From: an uncultured Streptococcus sp.
GTDB taxonomy: Bacteria > Bacillota > Bacilli > Lactobacillales > Aerococcaceae
Assembly (NCBI GenBank): GCA_963552295.1
Contig: CAUVJW010000001.1
Span: 1-52,200, forward strand
Direction: 5' to 3'
Length of the DNA: 52,200 bases
Below are positions 234 to 40,750 of this stretch, piece after piece; position 1 is the stretch's first letter; the number at the start of each line of letters is the position of its first letter. The notes beneath the pieces were generated by a model that was not told where the DNA came from, did no database searches, and saw only the letters and a program-made list of their open reading frames with translations. A program made the translations under genes and the position numbers.

Positions 234-422
234 GACGATGAGAAGAATCGAGCGGATTTTATAATAGCAGTAATGGGGGATGGCATTCAAAGTGAATTAC
301 GTACGCTTGAAAATTTATTTTCTAGAGTACGTTTGAATCTTGAAAGAGCTTGAGACTATGGCTCAAGCCGGTGCCCCATTACAGCTATTATAAAAAAATC
401 CGCAAGGATTCGAATCATCGTC
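234..422 (+). repeat. Structured intergenic element, copy A (core; degenerate palindrome extends ~105-611)
   Basis: GACGATGA(234-241)/TCATCGTC(415-422) closes a long rod; GTGAATTA 292-299, TTTGAA 332-337, GAGAC-tat-GGCTC 352-364; about 90% identical to copy E over ~160 nt by manual alignment. Confidence 0.9.
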
Positions 423-6925: not shown

Positions 6926-7144
6926 ATGAGTACAATTTCATTACGTTTAAATAAAGAAGAAGAGCGCCTTTTTAAAAATTATGCAGACTTTACCGGAGAA
7001 GGGTTAACGACCCTATTAAAGAAAGCATTAACTGAAAAAATTGAAGAAGAATATGATTTACAAGCTGTAAAAGAGTACGAAAGTGCTAAAGCAAATGGAG
7101 AAGTTATATTAGTTGACCATGAGGAATTCTGGGGAGACTTATAA
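6926..7144 (+). CDS. Type II antitoxin (RHH, RelB/DUF6290-like)
   Basis: 72 aa, TISLRLNKEE ribbon-helix-helix start, acidic C-terminus, TAATG overlap with toxin. Confidence 0.75.
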   Translation: MSTISLRLNKEEERLFKNYADFTGEGLTTLLKKALTEKIEEEYDLQAVKEYESAKANGEVILVDHEEFWGDL

Positions 7145-7419
7145 TGAGGTACACACTTTTTTATGATGAACGTCTCAAAAAGAAAATTAAAAAATTAGAT
7201 AATGGAACAAAAGTAATCTTAAAAAAATGGCTTGAAAAAAATTTGATAGACTGTGAAGATCCAAGAAGTAAGGGGAAACCTCTGAGTGGAACTTTATCAA
7301 AATATTGGAGATATAGAGTTGGAAATTATAGATTAATTGTAGAAATCGAAGATGACCAATTAAAAATTATAGCCTTTGAATTTGCGCATAGAAGCAGTGT
7401 TTACAAATTTATTAAATAG
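7144..7419 (+). CDS. RelE/ParE-family type II toxin
   Basis: 91 aa basic protein with GKPLSG..WRYRVGNYRLI..AHRSSVY RelE signature. Confidence 0.85.
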   Translation: MRYTLFYDERLKKKIKKLDNGTKVILKKWLEKNLIDCEDPRSKGKPLSGTLSKYWRYRVGNYRLIVEIEDDQLKIIAFEFAHRSSVYKFIK

Positions 7420-7759: not shown

Positions 7760-7880
7760 ATTTCGGACCCTTTACATTATTCGGGGAATATTTTTGGCAC
7801 CTTTTCCTACCCCGGCCACCCTTTCTTTTCCCCCTCCGCCTTCGAATTGATTGGGCTTCTTTTTTTATCTTTAATAATTT

Positions 7881-8131
7881 ACGCCTTACGGATAGCGCGT
7901 TAGAGTAGAACACAAACGAAGAACTCACTGGATTTCATCGTAATCATAATCGTGTTTCAGCAAGCAATGTGAATTACTGAGGGTTAGGGGTTTATCTCTT
8001 ACCCTCAGTTTGAAGCTTGCTAGACTTGAGACTTCGGCTCAAGTCGGTGCAATGATTATGATAACGATGAAAAAATCCAGAGGAGTTCGAAGGGTGTGTT
8101 CTATTCTTTTCATTCATTACCCGTAAGGCGT
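7881..8131 (+). repeat. Structured intergenic element, copy B
   Basis: ACGCCTTACGG/CCGTAAGGCGT and AGAGTAGAACACA/TGTGTTCTATTCT arms; AGCAA-t-GTGAATTA(7969)-CTGAGGG..CCCTCAG-TTTGAA-gc-TTGCT; GAGAC-ttc-GGCTC. Confidence 0.88.
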
Positions 8132-8183: not shown

Positions 8184-8438
8184 TTATTTGCTTAATTTTG
8201 CAGCAAGACGTGATTTATCACGAGAAGCTTTGTTTTTGTGGATTAATCCTTTAGAAGCAGCTCCGTCGATTGCTTTGTGAGCAGCACGTAATAATTCTTC
8301 AGCATTTTCAGCACCTTCAGCTACAGCAGCGTCAAATTTTTTGATAGCTGTACGCATAGCAGAAGTTTGAGCGTTGTTAGCAAGTGTTGACTTTTTGTTA
8401 GTACGAACACGTTTGATTTGTGATGCGATATTTGGCAA
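8184..8438 (-). CDS. rpsT: 30S ribosomal protein S20
   Basis: (M)PNIASQIKR...SAMRTAIKK...[19 protein letters not shown] start after GAGGGGTG RBS. Confidence 0.95.
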
Positions 8439-8611
8439 TGGGTTCACCCCTCTTTCATTTAACATGTATAATTACTGATCAGTTGTTTCCAACACGAACT
8501 ATTATACAAAAGTCCTACTTGAATTGCAAGCAAGGTATTGTGAAAGAACAAGACAGACAAACGGTAAAACTCCCGTAATGATGGTATACTAGAAAAGAAA
8601 GAGGTGAAGTC

Positions 8612-10594
8612 ATGGATCAATTTAAATTAGTGGCTCCTTATGCACCAAATGGAGACCAACCTCAAGCCATCCAAGAACTCGTCGATGGCATCAATAATGG
8701 GGTTAAAGAACAGACCTTACTTGGGGCAACCGGAACAGGGAAGACGTTCACGATTGCCAATGTGATTCAAGAAGTCAATAAACCAACGCTAGTATTAGCG
8801 CATAATAAAACATTAGCCGGCCAGTTGTACGGAGAGTTGAAAGAATTCTTCCCGGACAATGCGGTCGAATATTTTGTATCGTACTATGACTACTATCAAC
8901 CGGAGGCGTACGTACCTGCCAGCGATACGTATATTGAGAAGGAATCAAGTGTCAACGATGAGATTGATAAATTACGGCATTCGGCAACAAGCGCCCTTCT
9001 AGAACGTCGCGATGTGATTGTAGTGGCGTCTGTGTCTTCGATGTACGGTTTAGTAAACCCAGAAGATTACCGCGACCATGTATTATCGCTTCGTGAAGGC
9101 ATGGAAATCGAACGCGATGACCTATTGCGTCGATTGGTAGAAATGCAATTCGAGCGTAACGACTATGATTTCCGCCGCGGAACTTTCCGTGTTCGTGGGG
9201 ATGTCGTTGAAATCTTCCTACCAGGAAATGATGCGACGGCCTTTCGTATCGAGTTCTTCGGAGATGAAATCGAAGCGATTAAAGAAGTTGATGTGTTGAC
9301 GGGTGAAATTAAAGCAACCGTGGAACACGTGCCGATTTTCCCAGCAACGCACTTTGTGGCGAACGAGGACCAAATTTCACGGGCCGTGGCAACGATTAAA
9401 GAAGAGCTTGCGGAACGATTAAAAGAATTACGAGACGACAACTTACTGCTAGAAGCACAACGCTTGGAGCAACGTACCAACTACGATATCGAAATGCTCC
9501 TAGAGATGGGGTACTGTAACGGGATTGAGAACTACTCCCGTCATATGGATGGCCGACGTCCAGGACAACCACCGTATACTTTATTAGACTTCTTCCCGAA
9601 AGATTCGCTTTTCGTGGTCGATGAGTCGCATATTACGATGTCGCAAATTCGTGGTATGTATAACGGAGACCGTGCACGTAAGGAGCAGTTAATTAAATAC
9701 GGCTTCCGCTTACCGAGTGCTTTAGATAACCGTCCATTGCGCTTCGAAGAGTTCGAGGAACGCGTGCCGCAAATCATTTATATTTCGGCGACTCCGGGGC
9801 CTTACGAATTATCACATACGCCAACAGTTACTGAGCAAATCATTCGCCCAACCGGCCTGCTCGATCCACCAGTGGAAGTTCGTCCAATTAAAGGACAAAT
9901 TGATGACTTGATTAGTGAAATCAACCTACGTGTAGAACGCAATGAGCGTGTTTTCATTACGACACTAACGAAGAAGATGTCCGAGGACTTGACCGACTAC
10001 TTAGAAGAAGTGGGCATTAAGGTGAAGTACTTGCATAGTGACATTAAGACATTGGAACGTACGGAAATCATCCGTAATTTACGACTCGGAGAATTCGACG
10101 TATTGGTCGGAATCAACTTGCTTCGTGAAGGGTTAGACGTGCCAGAAGTATCCCTTGTGGCGATTCTGGATGCGGATAAGGAAGGCTTCCTTCGTAGTGA
10201 ACGTTCTCTTGTTCAAACGATTGGACGTGCAGCGCGTAATGCGAACGGTCGCGTGATTATGTATGCCGATAAGATTACGGATTCGATGCAAAAAGCGATT
10301 GATGAAACGAATCGTCGTCGTGCCATCCAAGAGGCATACAATAAAGAGCATGGCATCGTTCCGAAGACCATCGTGAAGAATATCCGCGATTTAATTGCGA
10401 TTACGCACGAGGTCGAAAAAGAAGATGCACCAACGACTGCAAAAGACTTTAAGAAGATGACGCAAGAACAACGCCGAGAAGCGCTTGAGTTACTCGAGTT
10501 GGATATGCGTGCCGCAGCCAAAGACCTCGATTTCGAGAAAGCAGCAGACTTACGCGACGTGATTCTCGAATTGCGTGCTGAGTATCGCTTATAA
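8612..10594 (+). CDS. uvrB: Excinuclease ABC subunit B
   Basis: [31 protein letters not shown]-terminal UVR domain. Confidence 0.98.
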
Positions 10595-11290: not shown

Positions 11291-12283
11291 ATGGTAAATA
11301 TTGCAATTGTAGGAGCGACAGGTGTCGTTGGAACAAAAATGATTGAACGTTTAGAAGAAAGTAACTTACAAGTAGACCACTTATATCTACTTGCTTCAGC
11401 GCGTTCAGCAGGGAAAGTACTACAGTTTAGAGGAAAAGATTATGTAGTCGAAGAATTAACGGAAGACTCCTTCAAGCGTAATATTGACTACGCCATCTTC
11501 TCAGCAGGGGGCGGCACTTCATTGAAATTTGCGCCAATCGCAGAACGTGACGGCGTGATTGTTATCGACAACTCAAGCGCATGGAGAATGGATCCAGAGA
11601 TTGATTTAGTCGTACCAGAATGTAACGCACCAACATTAGAGCGTAAGATTATCGCAAATCCAAACTGCTCAACAATCCAATCGGTTGTGCCATTACGTCC
11701 ATTGCATGATGCATTTGGATTAAAACGTGTGGCGTATACAACTTACCAAGCTGTTTCAGGTTCTGGACAAGCAGGAATTAATGATTTAAGAAATGGGGAA
11801 AAAGGGGAAGCTCCAACAAACTACCCACACCCAATTTACAATAACGTATTGCCGCATATCGATGTGTTTTTAGAAAATGGCTATACAAAAGAAGAAATGA
11901 AAATGATTCAAGAAACTCGCAAGATTCTAGGCTTATCAGATGATGTAGCCATCACTGCTACTTGTGTACGTGTGCCTGTTTATAACTCACACTCTGTAGA
12001 AATCAATGTGACTTTCGAAAAAGATACAACACCTGAAGAAATTCGTGCGATTTTAGAAAAAGCACCTGGCGTAATCGTATTAGATAAGCCTGAGGAAAAT
12101 GTATATCCAACACCATTACAAGCGACTGGACATGATGAAGTGTATGTGGGACGTATTCGTCGCGACATCTCTCAACCTAACAGCTTCCACATCTGGTGTG
12201 TGGGTGACAATATTCGTAAGGGTGCAGCAAGCAACGCGATCCAAATTGCGGAGTATATTGAAGCGCACAATTTACGTAGATAA
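11291..12283 (+). CDS. asd: Aspartate-semialdehyde dehydrogenase
   Basis: GATGVVG, IDNSSAWRM, ANPNCST, DNIRKGAA. Confidence 0.97.
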   Translation: MVNIAIVGATGVVGTKMIERLEESNLQVDHLYLLASARSAGKVLQFRGKDYVVEELTEDSFKRNIDYAIFSAGGGTSLKFAPIAERDGVIVIDNSSAWRMDPEIDLVVPECNAPTLERKIIANPNCSTIQSVVPLRPLHDAFGLKRVAYTTYQAVSGSGQAGINDLRNGEKGEAPTNYPHPIYNNVLPHIDVFLENGYTKEEMKMIQETRKILGLSDDVAITATCVRVPVYNSHSVEINVTFEKDTTPEEIRAILEKAPGVIVLDKPEENVYPTPLQATGHDEVYVGRIRRDISQPNSFHIWCVGDNIRKGAASNAIQIAEYIEAHNLRR

Positions 12284-12288
12284 TTAAA

Positions 12289-12541
12289 TAGAAGACTGGG
12301 CACCTGGGTGACAGTATAGTGAACAATGTTGATTACTCCAAATCCTTACGGATATCTTCATAATAGCTATAACGTTGCACCGGTTCGAGCCTAGGTCTCT
12401 CACCTTTAAAGCCTCAAAGGGAGCGTACGGAATAAAATTCCTACGCTCCCTTTTTCGCATTTAATGCCATCCCACGTTATGGCTATTATAGAATCCGTAA
12501 GATTTTTCGTAATCAACTTTCTAATAAGGCCCAGTCTTCTA
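12289..12541 (-). repeat. Structured intergenic element, copy C (reverse orientation)
   Basis: TAGAAGACTGGGC/GCCCAGTCTTCTA ends; minus strand TTAAA-t-GCGAAAAA-GGGAGCGTA..TACGCTCCC-TTTGAG-gc-TTTAA, GAGAC-cta-GGCTC, CGGTG. Confidence 0.88.
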
Positions 12542-12648
12542 ATGATTATTTACTCCGCTGCACCCCACTGTAGGTATAAAAAAGGATTCGTTGAGGATGG
12601 AAAAACGTGATGTATCATAAATGATACAACTTTAGAAAGTAAAAAAGT

Positions 12649-12688
12649 GAGTGTAACATTTTTGTTACGTAACATAATTGTTACACTC
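12649..12688. promoter_or_regulatory. Tandem palindromic operator-like site upstream of ABC exporter
   Basis: GTAACAtttttGTTAC directly followed by GTAACAtaatTGTTAC; the 40-mer is itself an imperfect palindrome. Confidence 0.45.
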
Positions 12689-12759: not shown

Positions 12760-14508
12760 ATGAATGTAAAAGGAAGTACGCGTGTGAACAAGTTAAAACC
12801 TTATTTAAAGCCATATCTGAAAGAAACGATATTGGCACCTTTATTTAAATTATTCGAAGCAATTCTGGAGTTGTTTGTTCCGCTCATTATGGCGGTCATT
12901 ATCGATAAAGGTATCGGTAATAAAGATACTGCACTGATTCTCCAACAAGGAGCGATTCTTGTTGGACTCGGAATGGTTGGTGTAGCCGTGTCGATTACCG
13001 CTCAGTATTTTGCGGCAAAGGCGGCAACCGGATTTACCGCCGACGTGAGACAGGCACTCTTTGCCAAAATTCAATACTTTAGTTTCTCGCAACTTGATGC
13101 GCTTGGAAATGACACTTTGCTGACGCGATTGACGAGTGATATGAATCTCGTGCAAAACGGGTTGAACATCGCGCTTCGTCTATTGCTACGTTCGCCGTTT
13201 ATCGTCGGTGGGGCGATTGTGATGGCCTTTGTTGTGAATGTGGAAATGGCATGGACGTTTGCCATCACAGTTCCAATCTTAGCAGTCGTCGTATTCGGGA
13301 TTATTTACTGGACGATTCCGATGTATCGCCGTGTGCAAGGAAAATTGGATCGCATTATGCGCCTCGTGCATGAAAACTTACTCGGTGTGCGTGTGATTCG
13401 TGCATTTAACCGCGAAGAAAAAGAAATTCAGTCGTTTAGAGAAGATACCGAAGCGTTGAATCAAGCGCAACAAAAGGTGAGTGGCCTCTCAGGAGCCATG
13501 AATCCTATTACATTTGTGATTGTGAATGTGGCGCTCATCGTCATTCTTTATGGCGGAGCGATTAAAGTGGACACAGGCACCTTAACGAAAGGGGAAGTCA
13601 TCGCTTTAACCAACTACATGTCTCAAATCTTAGTGGAGCTCGTGAAGTTCGCAAACCTGGTTGTATTGATGACAAAATCAGTAGCGAGTGCAGAGCGTAT
13701 TAACACGATTCTATCGATTGAAGCGGATATGGTCGAAGGTACTGAAAATGTTCATCCTGAAGGCGAAGTGTCAGTGGCGTTTAAAGACGTGACATTGACG
13801 TATCAAGGGGACCAAAACGCAGCGCTGAACCATATCTCATTTACCGCGTTGAAGGGACAGACTATCGGCGTGATTGGTGGGACTGGTAGCGGGAAATCGT
13901 CTCTTGTGAATATGATTCCCCGTTTCTATGATGCGACTGAGGGTAGTGTAGAGGTGTTCGGAGAAGACGTTCGTCGCTACCGTTTTGCATCGCTTCGTGG
14001 AGCGGTCGGAATGGTCTTGCAAAAGGCGCAACTTTTCCGTGGAACGATTGCCGACAATGTCCGTTTTGGAAATGCATCTGTTTCAAGTGAAGTGGTAGAA
14101 CATGCACTCGATATCGCCCAAGCCAGCGAGTTTGTACAGACGAAAGAAGGCGGACTTGATTATGGCATCGAACAAAATGGTCGCAATTTATCCGGTGGGC
14201 AAAAACAACGGATGACGATTGCACGTGCGATTGCTAAACAAGCACCGATTTTAATCCTAGATGATAGTGCTTCGGCATTAGACTTTGCGACCGACGCGAA
14301 ATTGCGTGAGGCGATTAAGAACCAAACGCCACGTCCAACAACCTTTATCGTGTCGCAACGGGCGGCGTCTGTGCAGTATGCAGACTTAATTCTTGTACTC
14401 GATGAAGGAAATCTTGTCGGAAAAGGCACGCATGAAGAGCTCTTAGCTAACAATGAGATTTACCAAGAAATTTACTACTCACAATTTCCAAAGGAGGATG
14501 AAGCATGA
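12760..14508 (+). CDS. ABC exporter, fused permease/ATPase subunit 1 (start may be GTG 12784)
   Basis: TM domain, GGTGSGKS, LSGGQKQR, degenerate Walker B ILDDS and Q switch. Confidence 0.9.
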   Translation: MNVKGSTRVNKLKPYLKPYLKETILAPLFKLFEAILELFVPLIMAVIIDKGIGNKDTALILQQGAILVGLGMVGVAVSITAQYFAAKAATGFTADVRQALFAKIQYFSFSQLDALGNDTLLTRLTSDMNLVQNGLNIALRLLLRSPFIVGGAIVMAFVVNVEMAWTFAITVPILAVVVFGIIYWTIPMYRRVQGKLDRIMRLVHENLLGVRVIRAFNREEKEIQSFREDTEALNQAQQKVSGLSGAMNPITFVIVNVALIVILYGGAIKVDTGTLTKGEVIALTNYMSQILVELVKFANLVVLMTKSVASAERINTILSIEADMVEGTENVHPEGEVSVAFKDVTLTYQGDQNAALNHISFTALKGQTIGVIGGTGSGKSSLVNMIPRFYDATEGSVEVFGEDVRRYRFASLRGAVGMVLQKAQLFRGTIADNVRFGNASVSSEVVEHALDIAQASEFVQTKEGGLDYGIEQNGRNLSGGQKQRMTIARAIAKQAPILILDDSASALDFATDAKLREAIKNQTPRPTTFIVSQRAASVQYADLILVLDEGNLVGKGTHEELLANNEIYQEIYYSQFPKEDEA

Positions 14509-16341: not shown

Positions 16342-18291
16342 TTATAGATTGAATTCTTCTAGCGCTAGAGACGCTTCTTCCCATTCCTCAAGAAGTGTTT
16401 CTTGGCGCTCGAGAAGGGCTCCTTCTTCGGTTGAGAGGGCAGCAGATTTATCTGGGTCAGAATAGTTTTCTTCCAGGGTCATCGCCTCATGCACTTGTTC
16501 GAGTGCCGTTTCGATATCGTGCATCTCCGTTTCTAGTTGCTCGATGCGTCGTGTGAGCGTACGGATTTGACGTTGCTCTTCTTTAGAGGCATGGTAGCTG
16601 GCTTTAGCTTCTGTCATCGGCTGGGCCGTCGCTAGTGGGGCATCCTTGGCCTCTTGCAAAGCGGCGAGTTCTTCTTTCTCTTGTTTTTTCTCGAGATAGT
16701 AGTCGTAGTCGCCTAAATACAGCGTGCTGCCAGTTTCTTCGATTTCAAGAATGGCCGTTGCGACCTTGTTGATGAAGAAACGGTCATGCGAAACGAAACA
16801 AATGGTGCCGTCGTAGTCGATAAGAGCATCTTCGAGCACTTCTTTACTGTCGATATCCAAGTGGTTGGTTGGTTCGTCGAGCAGTAGGAAATTATCATGT
16901 TCTAGAGACAGTTTGCAAAGTGCCAAACGAGCCTTTTCACCCCCGCTGAGTTGAGCTGTTGTTTTCTCAACATCATTTCCTGAGAAAAGGAAGCTACCAA
17001 GAATCGAACGAACGTCTTTTTCAGGCATCGTTGAGTGACGAGACCAGAGTTCTTCTAGAACTGTTTGATTCGATGAGAGGCCGGCCAAGTTTTGGTCATA
17101 GTAACCGACTTGAACGCCAGCACCTAAGTCGATTGAACCTTCGATTAAAGGTAATTCACCCGTAATAGACTTCAAGAGAGTAGATTTTCCAATACCGTTA
17201 GGCCCCACAATCGCGATGGCTTCACGCTTGCGAAGCTGGAAGGAAATCGGACCGCTGAAGGCTTCGTGGTCGTAGCCGATATAAGCGTCGGTTACTTGCA
17301 ACACTTGGTTTCCGGATTCGCGTTCCACGGTAAATTCAAAACGAGCAGAGCGCTGATCGCCTTTTGGTTTCTCTAAGCGTTCCATTTTCTCGAGCTTCTT
17401 ACGGCGTGATTGCGCACGTTTTGTGGTTGAGGCCCGGACTAAGTTTTTCGCAATGAATTCTTCTAAGTCGTGAATCTCTTGTTGCTGCTTCTCGTAGGCT
17501 TTTTGTTTGAGTAAATAGCGTTGCTCGCGTTCTTCTAAGTAGTGCGAGTAATTCCCTTTGTAATATTCACAGGCCTTATGACTGATTTCATAGACTTCGT
17601 TACACACACGGTCCAAGAAGTATTGGTCGTGGGATACGATGACAAGCGCGCTACTTGAAGAGCGTAAGTAGTCTTCAAGCCACGTCAATGTCTCGATATC
17701 CAAGTGGTTGGTTGGTTCGTCTAAAATGAGTAAGTCGTGTTTCTCTAATAAAATACGAGCGAGAGCGAGACGAGTACGTTGGCCTCCAGAGAGTGCTTGA
17801 ATCGGTTGGTCGTAGTCTTCTGGATAGAAACGGAATCCATGAAGAACGGTACGAATTTCAGACTCGTAACCATACGCATTCTTTTGGTTCAATTCTTCTT
17901 GCAATTGGTCGTATCGTTTTAAGGCGAGTTCGTACGCCACGGGGTCACTTAGAAGGTCTGGGTCACCGAGTTGCTCAGCCGCTTTTTGCGCTTGTTTCTT
18001 CAAGGTTTCCACATCTTCGAAGAGATGTACCATTTCTTCCCAAACGGTGCGGGAAGACTGGATGGCAGCGTATTGGTCTAAGTAGCCAATCGAGAGGTCT
18101 TTCTTCTTTGACACAGCGCCAAGAGAAGGTTCTTCGATTCCAGCCAACATTTTTAATAGCGTAGATTTTCCAGTACCATTTCGCCCAACGATGGCAATGC
18201 GTGAATTTTCTTGAATATGAATCGTAATATTTTCAAATAGGACTTCATCCGCAAACGTACGCGCGAGTCCTTGTCCTTGTAATAAAATCAT
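16342..18291 (-). CDS. ABC-F family ATPase (YdiF-like)
   Basis: Two NBDs (GRNGTGKS, GPNGIGKS; LSGG; LDEPTNHLD x2), no TM, C-terminal coiled coil; divergent from rex. Confidence 0.9.
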   Translation of the reverse strand: MILLQGQGLARTFADEVLFENITIHIQENSRIAIVGRNGTGKSTLLKMLAGIEEPSLGAVSKKKDLSIGYLDQYAAIQSSRTVWEEMVHLFEDVETLKKQAQKAAEQLGDPDLLSDPVAYELALKRYDQLQEELNQKNAYGYESEIRTVLHGFRFYPEDYDQPIQALSGGQRTRLALARILLEKHDLLILDEPTNHLDIETLTWLEDYLRSSSSALVIVSHDQYFLDRVCNEVYEISHKACEYYKGNYSHYLEEREQRYLLKQKAYEKQQQEIHDLEEFIAKNLVRASTTKRAQSRRKKLEKMERLEKPKGDQRSARFEFTVERESGNQVLQVTDAYIGYDHEAFSGPISFQLRKREAIAIVGPNGIGKSTLLKSITGELPLIEGSIDLGAGVQVGYYDQNLAGLSSNQTVLEELWSRHSTMPEKDVRSILGSFLFSGNDVEKTTAQLSGGEKARLALCKLSLEHDNFLLLDEPTNHLDIDSKEVLEDALIDYDGTICFVSHDRFFINKVATAILEIEETGSTLYLGDYDYYLEKKQEKEELAALQEAKDAPLATAQPMTEAKASYHASKEEQRQIRTLTRRIEQLETEMHDIETALEQVHEAMTLEENYSDPDKSAALSTEEGALLERQETLLEEWEEASLALEEFNL

Positions 18292-21637: not shown

Positions 21638-21867
21638 GTGCTTACTAAAAAATGAACTTCGTTCAAAACTTCGAACACTGAAGGATTTGTTTATAATAGC
21701 TGTAATGGGACAACGGTTCGAGCCTGTCGTCTCTCACCTCAAAAGCCTCAAAGGAGCCGTACGGAATGACTTCCTACGGCTCCTAATTCGCATTTTGTGT
21801 TATTCCCCATTACTGCTACTATAAAATCCTTCGTGTTCTCCGTTTTGAACATTTTTTTGAGTGATAC
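21638..21867 (-). repeat. Structured intergenic element, copy D (reverse orientation)
   Basis: GTTCAAAAC/GTTTTGAAC arms; minus strand CAAAA-t-GCGAATTA-GGAGCCGTA..TACGGCTCC-TTTGAG-gc-TTTTG, GAGAC-gaca-GGCTC. Confidence 0.88.
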
Positions 21868-28285: not shown

Positions 28286-28320
28286 AAAGCGAGAGACGCA
28301 CCAACGTCCCTCGCTTTTTT
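28286..28320 (+). terminator. murF terminator
   Basis: AAAGCGAGAGACG..CGTCCCTCGCTTTTT. Confidence 0.75.
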
Positions 28321-28392
28321 CGTCCCCTCATGGAGAACTACCCATTATAAAGTGTCCCCATTTCTCAACCGCACCACGAGAAGCAAACACTC

Positions 28393-28668
28393 CCGCCTCC
28401 TCCCGCTTTTTACAGTTTGGAATGCGCTGTGATTACGGGCGGAAAATCTAGCGGATTCAATAGTATCAGTAATGGGGGATAGCATTCAAAGTGAATTACG
28501 TACTCTTGAAAATTTTTTCTAGAGTACGTTTGAATCTTGAAAGAGCTTGAGACCGTGGCTCAAGCCGGTGCCCCATTACAGCTATTATTGATAAATCCGC
28601 AAGGATTTGAAGCCCGTAAAGTCTTATTCCTTAAGCATTTTTAAAGAATAAAAAGCAGGAGTCGGCGG
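28393..28668 (+). repeat. Structured intergenic element, copy E (palindrome extends ~28336-28751)
   Basis: TTACGGGC/GCCCGTAA, GCGGATT/AATCCGC arms; GTGAATTA 28491; GAGAC-cgt-GGCTC; close to copy A. Confidence 0.9.
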
Positions 28669-34709: not shown

Positions 34710-34766
34710 GACGAGCGCGATATTGTTGCAAGCACATCACCATAATGGTAGAATATTTTGTATATT

Positions 34767-35002
34767 AGAGCGATGAACAAGAGGAGTAAAATGACTTTGT
34801 TTACGAGAGAGGGAAGACTTGGTGAAACTTCCTAGCAGATTCATTTGAAGGTAGCTTGTGAGCTTACTCTACGAAATGCAGTAATAGAGTACGGAGACGA
34901 CACTTCGTTACCAACATCGAGGCGTAATGAATGATTACGCGAATATTAGGTGGTACCACGAAATCAATCGTCCTATGGAGAGTGTCTTCATAGGATTTTT
35001 TT
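34767..35002 (+). promoter_or_regulatory. Valine T-box riboswitch leader
   Basis: Stem I AGAGA/GGTGAAA motifs, GTA (Val) specifier at 34851, T-box AGGTGGTACCACG 34948-34960, terminator 34971-35002; promoter TTGCAA(34726)-17-TAGAAT. Confidence 0.93.
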
Positions 35003-39948: not shown

Positions 39949-40083
39949 TTGCAAATTTGCCTGTGAGATGTTATACTTAGGTTGTGTTTTTGTTATGTAA
40001 AGAAATTGTGTAAGATATTACTCCTTTCGAACCATTAGCAAGAATATCAATAACAAGTGCTATGGCACAAGGAGGAAATGTTC
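39949..40083 (+). promoter_or_regulatory. cspA promoter and long 5' leader
   Basis: TTGCAA(39949)-17-TATACT(39972) with extended TG; ~100 nt UTR typical of csp genes. Confidence 0.6.
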
Positions 40084-40284
40084 ATGGAACAAGGTACAGT
40101 AAAATGGTTTAACTCAGAAAAAGGTTTTGGGTTTATCGAACGTGAAGGTGGAAACGATGTATTCGTACACTTCTCAGCAATCCAATCAGAAGGATTCAAA
40201 ACATTAGAAGAAGGACAAGCAGTTCAATTCGATGTTGAAGAAGGCGCTCGTGGACCACAAGCAGCTAACGTAGTTAAACTATAA
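40084..40284 (+). CDS. cspA: Cold-shock protein
   Basis: [27 protein letters not shown]; terminator 40302-40328; exact paralogue name uncertain. Confidence 0.92.
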
Positions 40285-40490
40285 TTTAACTTAAACTTTG
40301 ATACCACCGGTTTTCCGGTGGTTTTTTTGTGCGCAAAAACAGAAGAGTCGAAGCTTAAAATGTACAAATTTGGCCATGTCCATATATGGCCTTTTTGTCC
40401 TCCCCCTCCCAAGAATTTCTTTTTATTTTTGTCCTTTTTTAGTAAGTTGGTTTCAAAATTATTGGTGATTTTTTGTTAGAAGCTGCCCCA

Positions 40491-40750
40491 GCTGGAATGG
40501 GAGAAACAAGTGCGAATCGATTTTTGAAAAACGAAGAGTCTTCGGATTCTATAGGAATAATAATAGCGGTCATAATCGATGTGAATTACTGACTCTGGAA
40601 ATTCATTTCCTAGAGTCAGTTTGAAGCTCGATAGGAAACGAGACCTGGGCTCGTTCCGGTATAGCTATTGTTGTTCCTATGAAGATATCCGAAGGTGTTT
40701 GTAGTTTTTCAAAACAGCACAAAACATCTAATTGTTTCTTCCATTCCAGC
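40491..40750 (+). repeat. Structured intergenic element, copy F (palindrome extends ~40412-40873)
   Basis: GCTGGAATGGGAGAAACAA/TTGTTTCTTCCATTCCAGC arms; ATCGA-t-GTGAATTA(40581)-CTGACTCT..AGAGTCAG-TTTGAA-gc-TCGAT; GAGAC-ctg-GGCTC. Confidence 0.88.

Follow-up and report, generated by a model that had tools for sequence, protein, structure and literature searches.

The aspartate-semialdehyde dehydrogenase gene asd is followed, in the window (the whole stretch of 52,200 nt of DNA that was analysed), by one of six copies of a dispersed non-coding repeat. The outer arm of this copy, copy C, is a gapped reverse-complement copy of the end of the gene. The features at the locus are the following.

11291..12283, plus strand: asd, aspartate-semialdehyde dehydrogenase (PF02774 and PF01118), its 3' end is intact and is the native sequence from which the mirror derives
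12186..12301, plus strand: native mirrored stretch, the asd end and 18 bases past the stop (sequence, fold, hop test, orthologs)
12256-12278, 12229-12249 and about 12203-12219, plus strand: asd segments skipped in the mirror
12331..12376, minus strand: conserved 3' arm of copy C, with a purine-rich bulge and a GAA/GGA internal loop (arm alignments of 66 copies, inverted repeat I21)
12377..12467, minus strand: conserved core of copy C, a three-way junction with a long hairpin P2-P3 carrying a tandem G.A loop and a short hairpin P5 with an A.G/A.A mismatch (alignment, covariation)
12473..12520, minus strand: conserved 5' arm of copy C (inverted repeat and arm alignments)
12529..12574, minus strand: locus-specific mirror, in which the asd end is copied in reverse complement with three skips

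The asd protein is 98-100% identical across 13 close loci. The mirror starts as a perfect 13-bp stem (12289-12301 with 12529-12541), and outward from this stem the arm alternates between match and skip. Read as its reverse complement, 12529-12568 corresponds successively to asd 12276-12301, 12248-12255 and 12220-12228, with the coordinates and words of the original prediction. Its view of the arm as a mirror copied from the asd end is supported, and the same is true of the whole repeat family. The skips measure 23, 21 and about 17 nt, and their junctions share 3, 2 and 5 bases. Together the 23-nt and 21-nt hops, the outer ones, account exactly for 12 further arm bases. A double-hop cover of this length was reached by 5 of 20000 Markov shuffles of asd (p about 2.5e-4) and by none of 20000 random genome stretches, which places the match beyond chance. 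The third hop has 3 bases of support in the source genome, and the orthologous arms of relatives stretch its match to about asd 12186-12206. This hop test supersedes both a gapped-alignment score that was insensitive to the hops (p = 0.38) and a word test that was post hoc. Since an independent DNA run gives one contig spanning 11300-12678 with 12 substitutions and no gap, the mirror is not an assembly artefact. The region folds far better than shuffles (z = -8), a promoter and terminator scan of the locus gave chance-level results, and the arms persist in relatives after the partner arm is lost.

Other palindromic sequences share this neighbourhood. Two near-perfect palindromes (12612-12627 and 12649-12688) precede an ABC transporter at 12760 and are kept in relatives, even in those that lack the repeat there. 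In several genomes half of copy C has given way to a third repeat, about 150 bp long, which is inserted in the 3' strand of the P3 stem, behind asd (loci L007, L009, L011 and L014), near 10100 (L397) and in copy C11 of the source genome, G000. In a repeat-poor sister clade (L015-L017) a different palindromic repeat occupies the same site behind asd.

The repeat family and its mirrored flank

The repeat unit of about 190 nt is non-coding, strongly structured and dispersed through the genomes of Granulicatella, a bacterium of the mouth. A profile search of the 1.43-Mb, 83% complete source genome gave 74 matches, 66 of them strong and near full length, and the complete genome of a relative, G086, gave 87. 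The core folds into a three-way junction. Pairing holds in 93.5% of 945 cells across 31 diverse copies, and 22 of 31 pairs carry two-sided changes, so that pairing and covariation stand far above shuffled and slid controls, with the structure drawn from the same sequences that were scored, which inflates the slid control. The purine-rich conserved loops and the tandem G.A pairs are all on one strand, here called plus, and copy C lies with this strand on the minus strand of the window. The plus strand folds better in 51 of 65 copies (52 of 65 with DNA parameters). The core of copy C scores 110 bits against our model R1, and the other five copies of the window are as follows.

271..384, plus strand: core of copy A, its 5' mirror, at about 130-256, derives from the promoter and start of the gene at 548
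7958..8059, plus strand: core of copy B, which mirrors the terminator of the gene at 8184-8465
21700..21812, minus strand: core of copy D, behind groEL
28470..28581, plus strand: core of copy E, with a mirror at about 28340-28420 of the promoter of a DEAD-box helicase gene
40565..40671, plus strand: core of copy F, with a mirror at about 40410-40510 of the mreB promoter region

Rfam 15 gave no match at gathering score over the repeat in the window, only weak chance matches with E up to 5. Matches to the model occur in 37 of 151 Lactobacillales genomes, weak streptococcal ones included, and a phylum-wide model search of 151 genomes returned, besides the source genome, one weak partial site. The literature searched held no account of this repeat or of one-sided, gap-rich flank mirrors; supplements and subscription journals, outside that scope, could hold the core. 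About a quarter of the sampled Lactobacillales genomes contain this three-way-junction motif, which covaries strongly and is apparently not yet catalogued.

Throughout the family the mirror lies on the 5' side of the repeat and native DNA on the 3' side. In the Granulicatella adiacens group it covers roughly 50-200 bases of native DNA from the 3' side, and its partners are gene ends or promoters next to the other side of the repeat. Beyond the conserved 45-base arms, 37 of 52 full-flank copies exceed the 95th percentile of 400 swapped-flank pairs, and gaps number 122 on the 5' side against 31 on the 3' side. At non-coding partners some gaps are due to insertion into the 3' side. In the 18 of 91 loci whose partner is coding, the mirror carries 52 gaps and the gene 9. 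In G000 the 5' arm is shorter than the 3' arm in 60 of 66 copies, and in G086 in 67 of 72. This polarity is independent of context: copies occupy both replichore strands (57 and 30 in G086) and the 5' arm is still the derived one in 67 of 72, and copies face both ways relative to genes. The 3' side runs into ORFs in 14 copies against one on the 5' side, and the next ORF lies at a distance of 257 on the 5' side against 119 on the 3' side.

The mirror is a net insertion. The mreB promoter exists without repeat or mirror in G086 and in G325, and of seven syntenic sites that gave no profile match in the other genome most held damaged copies and two were informative; in both of these the mirror is added sequence, and one mirror preserves an older state of its gene. 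Transduction of a donor flank was considered and rejected, the proximal 3' arms of 72 copies in G086 matching only other repeats. One locus shows exchange of cores between copies, and copies are found nested within older arms.

Several further observations concern the repeat and its surroundings. Tandem duplications of mirror plus repeat are always added on the 5' side (L352, L356, L335, L336 and L410 in G086; C22 and C3 in G000). Independent re-copying in such pairs was rejected, since the near-identical pairs (7 of 16) mostly share their skips and are therefore later tandem duplications. Between the far end of the mirror and the upstream terminator there are short, C-rich and highly variable duplications (window 7760-7840, 28320-28340 and 40385-40410), with a diversity of 0.26 per site at copy B. 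A T run occurs within 30 bases of the mirror end in 12 of 58 cases, against 0 of 37 at partner-side ends. A 130-bp two-hairpin insert is found at the same core position, inside a conserved GAATTA word, at unrelated loci (L006, L011, L139, L219 and C11 of G000 near 17900), and is a second element targeting the repeat. In G086 the plus strand of the repeat lies on lagging-strand sequence in 57 of 87 matches. Elsewhere in the window two small adjacent ORFs (6927-7419) resemble a type II toxin-antitoxin pair, putatively RelB/RelE-like, and a T-box leader before the valyl-tRNA synthetase gene (34764-34978) and a cspA thermoregulator (39986-40329) are both ordinary.

Sizes, junctions and timing of the skips

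In order to compare the skips at asd with those of the family, 97 confident skips from 89 non-redundant loci were set against simulated random deletions run through the same alignment. The similar skip sizes noted in the original prediction do not extend to the family: 28 of the 97 skips are of 1 nt, 14 are of at least 10 nt, and only 4 fall within 17-23 nt. The mirror of copy E carries an 18-nt skip that is common to all 21 genomes aligned. Junctions sharing a base are fewer than simulated (29 of 97 against 43% expected, p = 0.013), with a mean of 0.42 shared bases against 0.72, and one-base skips within runs are depleted (4 of 28 against 48% simulated, p = 0.0006). The 14 skips of at least 10 nt share 0.71 bases against 0.66 simulated, which is chance, and the skips at coding partners 0.31 against 0.80. 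Enrichment of microhomology at the junctions of all mirrored arms had been expected, but none appeared in four tests, two of which were limited, one holding 25 junctions and another being biased low by design. The asd junctions are the tail of this family-wide distribution. The GTG-bridged skip claimed for copy A did not survive either; the best alignment continues without it, and the G086 ortholog keeps the bases supposedly removed. Hairpins in the skipped segments gave p = 0.09 with n = 5.

The timing of the gaps can be followed among orthologs. Differences between mirror and partner that are common to all orthologs comprise 90 gaps and 42 substitutions, and those that are polymorphic 116 gaps and 139 substitutions, counts that are noisy. 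Overall the gap-to-mismatch ratio of mirror to partner is 0.40, against 0.14-0.18 for erosion simulated at ortholog rates. Among orthologs the mirror accumulates 0.13-0.20 indels per substitution, whereas the distal native side hardly varies. The rate of change in the mirror does not exceed that of four-fold sites, and a hypermutable arm was rejected on this ground. The longest perfect mirror run in 82 alignments is 23 nt, and none of them is near-perfect. A proxy for copy age did not correlate with mirror quality. Arms track changes in the partner at 46 of 86 inner columns, 10 of 28 columns at 45-70 nt and 2 of 25 distal columns, and because tracking falls in this way, the far mirror is a one-time copy, the near arm being kept matched. 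At mreB there are two alleles, each with a proximal mirror fitted to its own 3' variant, and some genomes retain longer, less gapped mirrors. Erosion of the mirror by deletion accounts for part of the gaps.

Related cores, ISL3 ends and candidate enzymes

The same core occurs in uniform units of 242-258 bp in a Jeotgalibaca-like genome (G149) and in family f2. ISL3-like ends, judged by terminal repeats read from retrieved ISL3 loci, are present on both sides of 11 of 14 copies in G149, 13 of 18 in f2 and 2 of 11 in two other genomes (G125/G141), and 8-bp direct target repeats flank 8 of 14, 10 of 18 and 0 of 11, respectively. Granulicatella copies carry both ISL3 ends in 4 of 89 loci at a threshold of at least 15 of 24 bases, which is chance level, as a single end reaches 15 of 24 in 54 of 300 random windows. 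At the clean empty Granulicatella sites, which are few and at which the element ends are not fixed, no 8-bp repeat was seen by eye. The ISL3 transposase (PF01610) is encoded in 21 of 31 genomes of the genus and was not found in the 83% complete G000. The core is not part of ISL3 elements themselves, 33 ISL3 loci holding two matches, neither inside an intact element. A mirror is present in 0 of 14 copies in G149, 1 of 18 in f2 and 2 of 11 in G125/G141, against 20 of 30 sampled Granulicatella loci, the copies from other genera being the best-scoring among those listed.

The distribution of the hairpin nuclease subunit SbcD was compared with that of the mirrors. A search with one Pfam family, SbcD_C, gave no match in 41 Granulicatella genomes and matches in 106 of 151 genomes of the order Lactobacillales; all six repeat-rich genomes of other genera that were checked gave a match. 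Streptococcal relatives are mostly without SbcD (one weak match in 19) and show little mirror (4 of 20 usable loci, from 30 sampled). A distant Granulicatella, G032, has 142 matches of a related core, whose arms are perfect inverted repeats of about 30-36 bp with a different middle in each copy; 7 of 25 exceed the control, and there is no polarity. The loss of SbcD is one phylogenetic event and is not sufficient for mirrors, as the streptococci and G032 illustrate. The homogenisation of arms in G032, a genome without SbcD, is striking in its own right (L162, L478-L501). Streptococcal repeats (L168, L171, L172, L502-L528) share the P5 hairpin and a variable-loop hairpin with the Granulicatella repeat; possibly these are of BOX type, which would tie BOX to this superfamily.

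No enzyme for the fold-back step was found among the Y1, reverse transcriptase, GIY-YIG and DUF559 candidates. Y1 transposase genes number zero in G000 and occur in 13 of 31 genomes of the genus, and none of 10 Y1 loci examined holds a repeat copy. An IS200-type element with a 159-aa open frame occupies 10 different sites in as many genomes of the genus (L316-L325) and is broken by a stop in G008. Reverse transcriptase (RVT_1) was detected in 5 of the 31 genomes, among them the repeat-poor G009, and in neither G000 nor the complete G086. GIY-YIG nucleases were rejected as partners, their genes being present also in G009 and not flanked by copies, as was DUF559, whose sole match near a copy resembles a Vsr-type gene and has the repeat on just one of its sides. 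Paired copies in G086 enclose no nuclease-like ORF, and no linked gene emerged among the listed ORFs near the best matches in other genera and on three of five viral contigs, whose matches look like host DNA at prophage edges.

Origin of the mirror and comparison with known systems

The explanation that we favour, with slightly better than even confidence, is strand-specific fold-back synthesis with forward skips, tolerated in a genus without SbcCD and followed by drift. A free 3' end would arise on the minus strand of the repeat just outside the conserved arm and its GAA loop, and candidate triggers are a stalled fork on the more stable plus-strand fold, a nick or break, or an insertion intermediate. 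The arms being complementary, this end could fold back on its own strand and be extended over the neighbouring DNA by a low-fidelity, poorly processive polymerase, which may re-register forward about once per 15-25 bases, microhomology not being needed. Looped template would persist as a skip and looped primer would be trimmed. The extended strand would then rejoin the chromosome and leave an imperfect palindrome of 300-500 bases, which would survive through the loss of SbcCD in the genus. Subsequently the mirror would drift and lose bases, the native side being held by selection, and short re-copying would keep the inner 45-70 bases of the arms matched. Conserved inner-arm mismatches would survive because synthesis starts outside the loop.

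The sequence of the added strand fits the extension of a minus-strand 3' end folded onto the other arm. A bias among wobble mismatches (87 to 47) also leans to minus-strand synthesis, with swapped controls leaning likewise (84 to 68). In the available part of one study, SbcCD of E. coli guards against palindrome-centred fold-back duplications (PMC3315005). A second, as far as its accessible text goes, describes Mre11 as suppressing fold-back duplications in yeast, with proofreading trimming the flaps (PMC10622511). Ordinary template switching, in the portion available of a third, perfects arms and follows fork direction (PMC5941160). A bolder form of strand-specific fold-back synthesis holds that an element once carried between ISL3 ends switched in Granulicatella to a dedicated strand-specific nick and an error-prone, template-skipping polymerase, building its 5' arm from target DNA. 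We regard this form as unlikely. If it were true, every insertion would make an antisense arm against the end, promoter or ribosome-binding site of a neighbouring gene, and a bacterial mobile element would leave an inverted instead of a direct target duplication.

A rather unlikely rival is that the mirror was born as a perfect inverted duplication and then lost bases through ordinary deletions on its neutral side only, the native side being conserved. Indels among orthologs are indeed several times as frequent in mirror arms as in their partners, and the arms evolve no faster than synonymous sites; the 116 polymorphic gap stretches and the longer, less gapped mreB mirrors of some genomes also suit erosion. 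The slipped-strand deletions of the original prediction are upheld as far as the mirror has suffered lineage-specific deletions. However, slippage needs repeats and these are lacking at the junctions, the one-base gaps being scarce in runs. The gap-to-mismatch ratio is two to three times the ortholog rate, gaps common to all orthologs are in excess, no near-perfect mirror exists among the 82 alignments, and a polar duplication step would still be required.

We give less credence still to a retro-element RNA, in which a target-primed reverse transcriptase copies the RNA and the end of the cDNA then folds back to copy the flank of the target ahead of joining, so that the mirror is made at insertion. 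Such a scheme would account at once for polarity, net insertion and errors, and the one-strand purine-rich loops and tandem G.A pairs, together with the better folding of that strand, agree with it, as do snap-back 5' junctions described for R2 proteins in the available part of PMC11371274. But the patchy occurrence of RVT_1 argues against it, and the ISL3-like ends and 8-bp target repeats of the same core elsewhere are the signature of a DNA transposase; the P5 loop sequences do not decide between RNA and DNA. Hopping of a polymerase between microhomologies in steps of about 20 nt, as first proposed, is highly improbable; the sizes and shared bases of the three asd skips fit this picture, but it has no support beyond that locus. 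Across the family sizes near 20 nt are rare, long skips share bases at chance level and coding partners share fewer than simulated. Least probable of all is that the long arms are selected regulatory RNA helices sequestering neighbouring gene ends, promoters or ribosome-binding sites: the strong fold, the reach of some mirrors into start regions (copy A) and a mirror diversity below four-fold sites at two of three loci would suit this, but distal arms barely track their partners and vary at 93 of 601 constant partner positions, the plus strand has no G.U excess, copies face both ways relative to genes and arms remain after partner arm loss.

The repeat family bears on the question of how BOX, EFAR and other small repeats of bacteria spread and change. 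The BOX elements of pneumococci and S. suis consist of boxA-(boxB)n-boxC modules, and the EFAR repeats of enterococci are composed of B-J-T modules (165-170 bp). The family offers a natural comparison, since one core behaves as an ordinary ISL3-type MITE in some genera and seeds one-sided, gap-rich mirrors in a genus that lacks SbcD. Each genome would supply dozens of dated fold-back events and, in them, a record of the errors made during copying. Bacteria would also acquire in this way long hairpins that are antisense to neighbouring genes; in plants, inverted duplication is regarded as a source of small-RNA hairpins.

Among known systems, ISL3-type MITEs, BOX, RUP and SPRITE (PMC3049150) and EFAR (named in PMC3733652) are, in the parts of these sources that were available, likewise non-coding, intergenic, present in tens of copies, strongly folded, nested and mostly old. 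The Granulicatella copies differ in lacking ISL3 ends and in having locus-specific, one-sided host mirrors, which those same parts do not mention. REP and REPIN sequences with their RAYT (Y1 HUH) share dispersed hairpins with a conserved mismatch near the loop, according to the accessible portion of PMC3733652, whereas no Y1 gene stands beside any Granulicatella copy examined and the Y1 genes of the genus are IS200-type at unrelated sites. The snap-back of R2 cDNA, in the available text of PMC11371274, likewise has an inverted segment on the 5' side only and a self-primed new strand, but is eukaryotic and driven by a reverse transcriptase, and the Granulicatella repeat has no linked one. In the SbcCD (E. 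coli, PMC3315005) and Mre11 (yeast, PMC10622511) fold-backs, as far as the accessible parts describe them, a palindrome end primes synthesis and a nuclease suppresses the product, which accords with SbcD not being found in Granulicatella; those events are chromosome-scale and faithful, whereas the Granulicatella mirrors are short, error-rich, polar and fixed at dozens of loci. Template switching at quasi-palindromes (the Ripley model) rewrites one arm from the other in the available part of PMC5941160, and the co-varying inner arms (46 of 86) and the perfect arms of G032 share this feature. In that account, however, arms become perfect, tracts are short and the fork sets the direction, whereas here 50-200 skip-rich bases are copied on a side set by the strand of the repeat. 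The repeat is neither an ISL3 MITE in this genus nor a REP/RAYT system nor an Rfam family, and it works like fold-back template switching at a MITE-derived hairpin.
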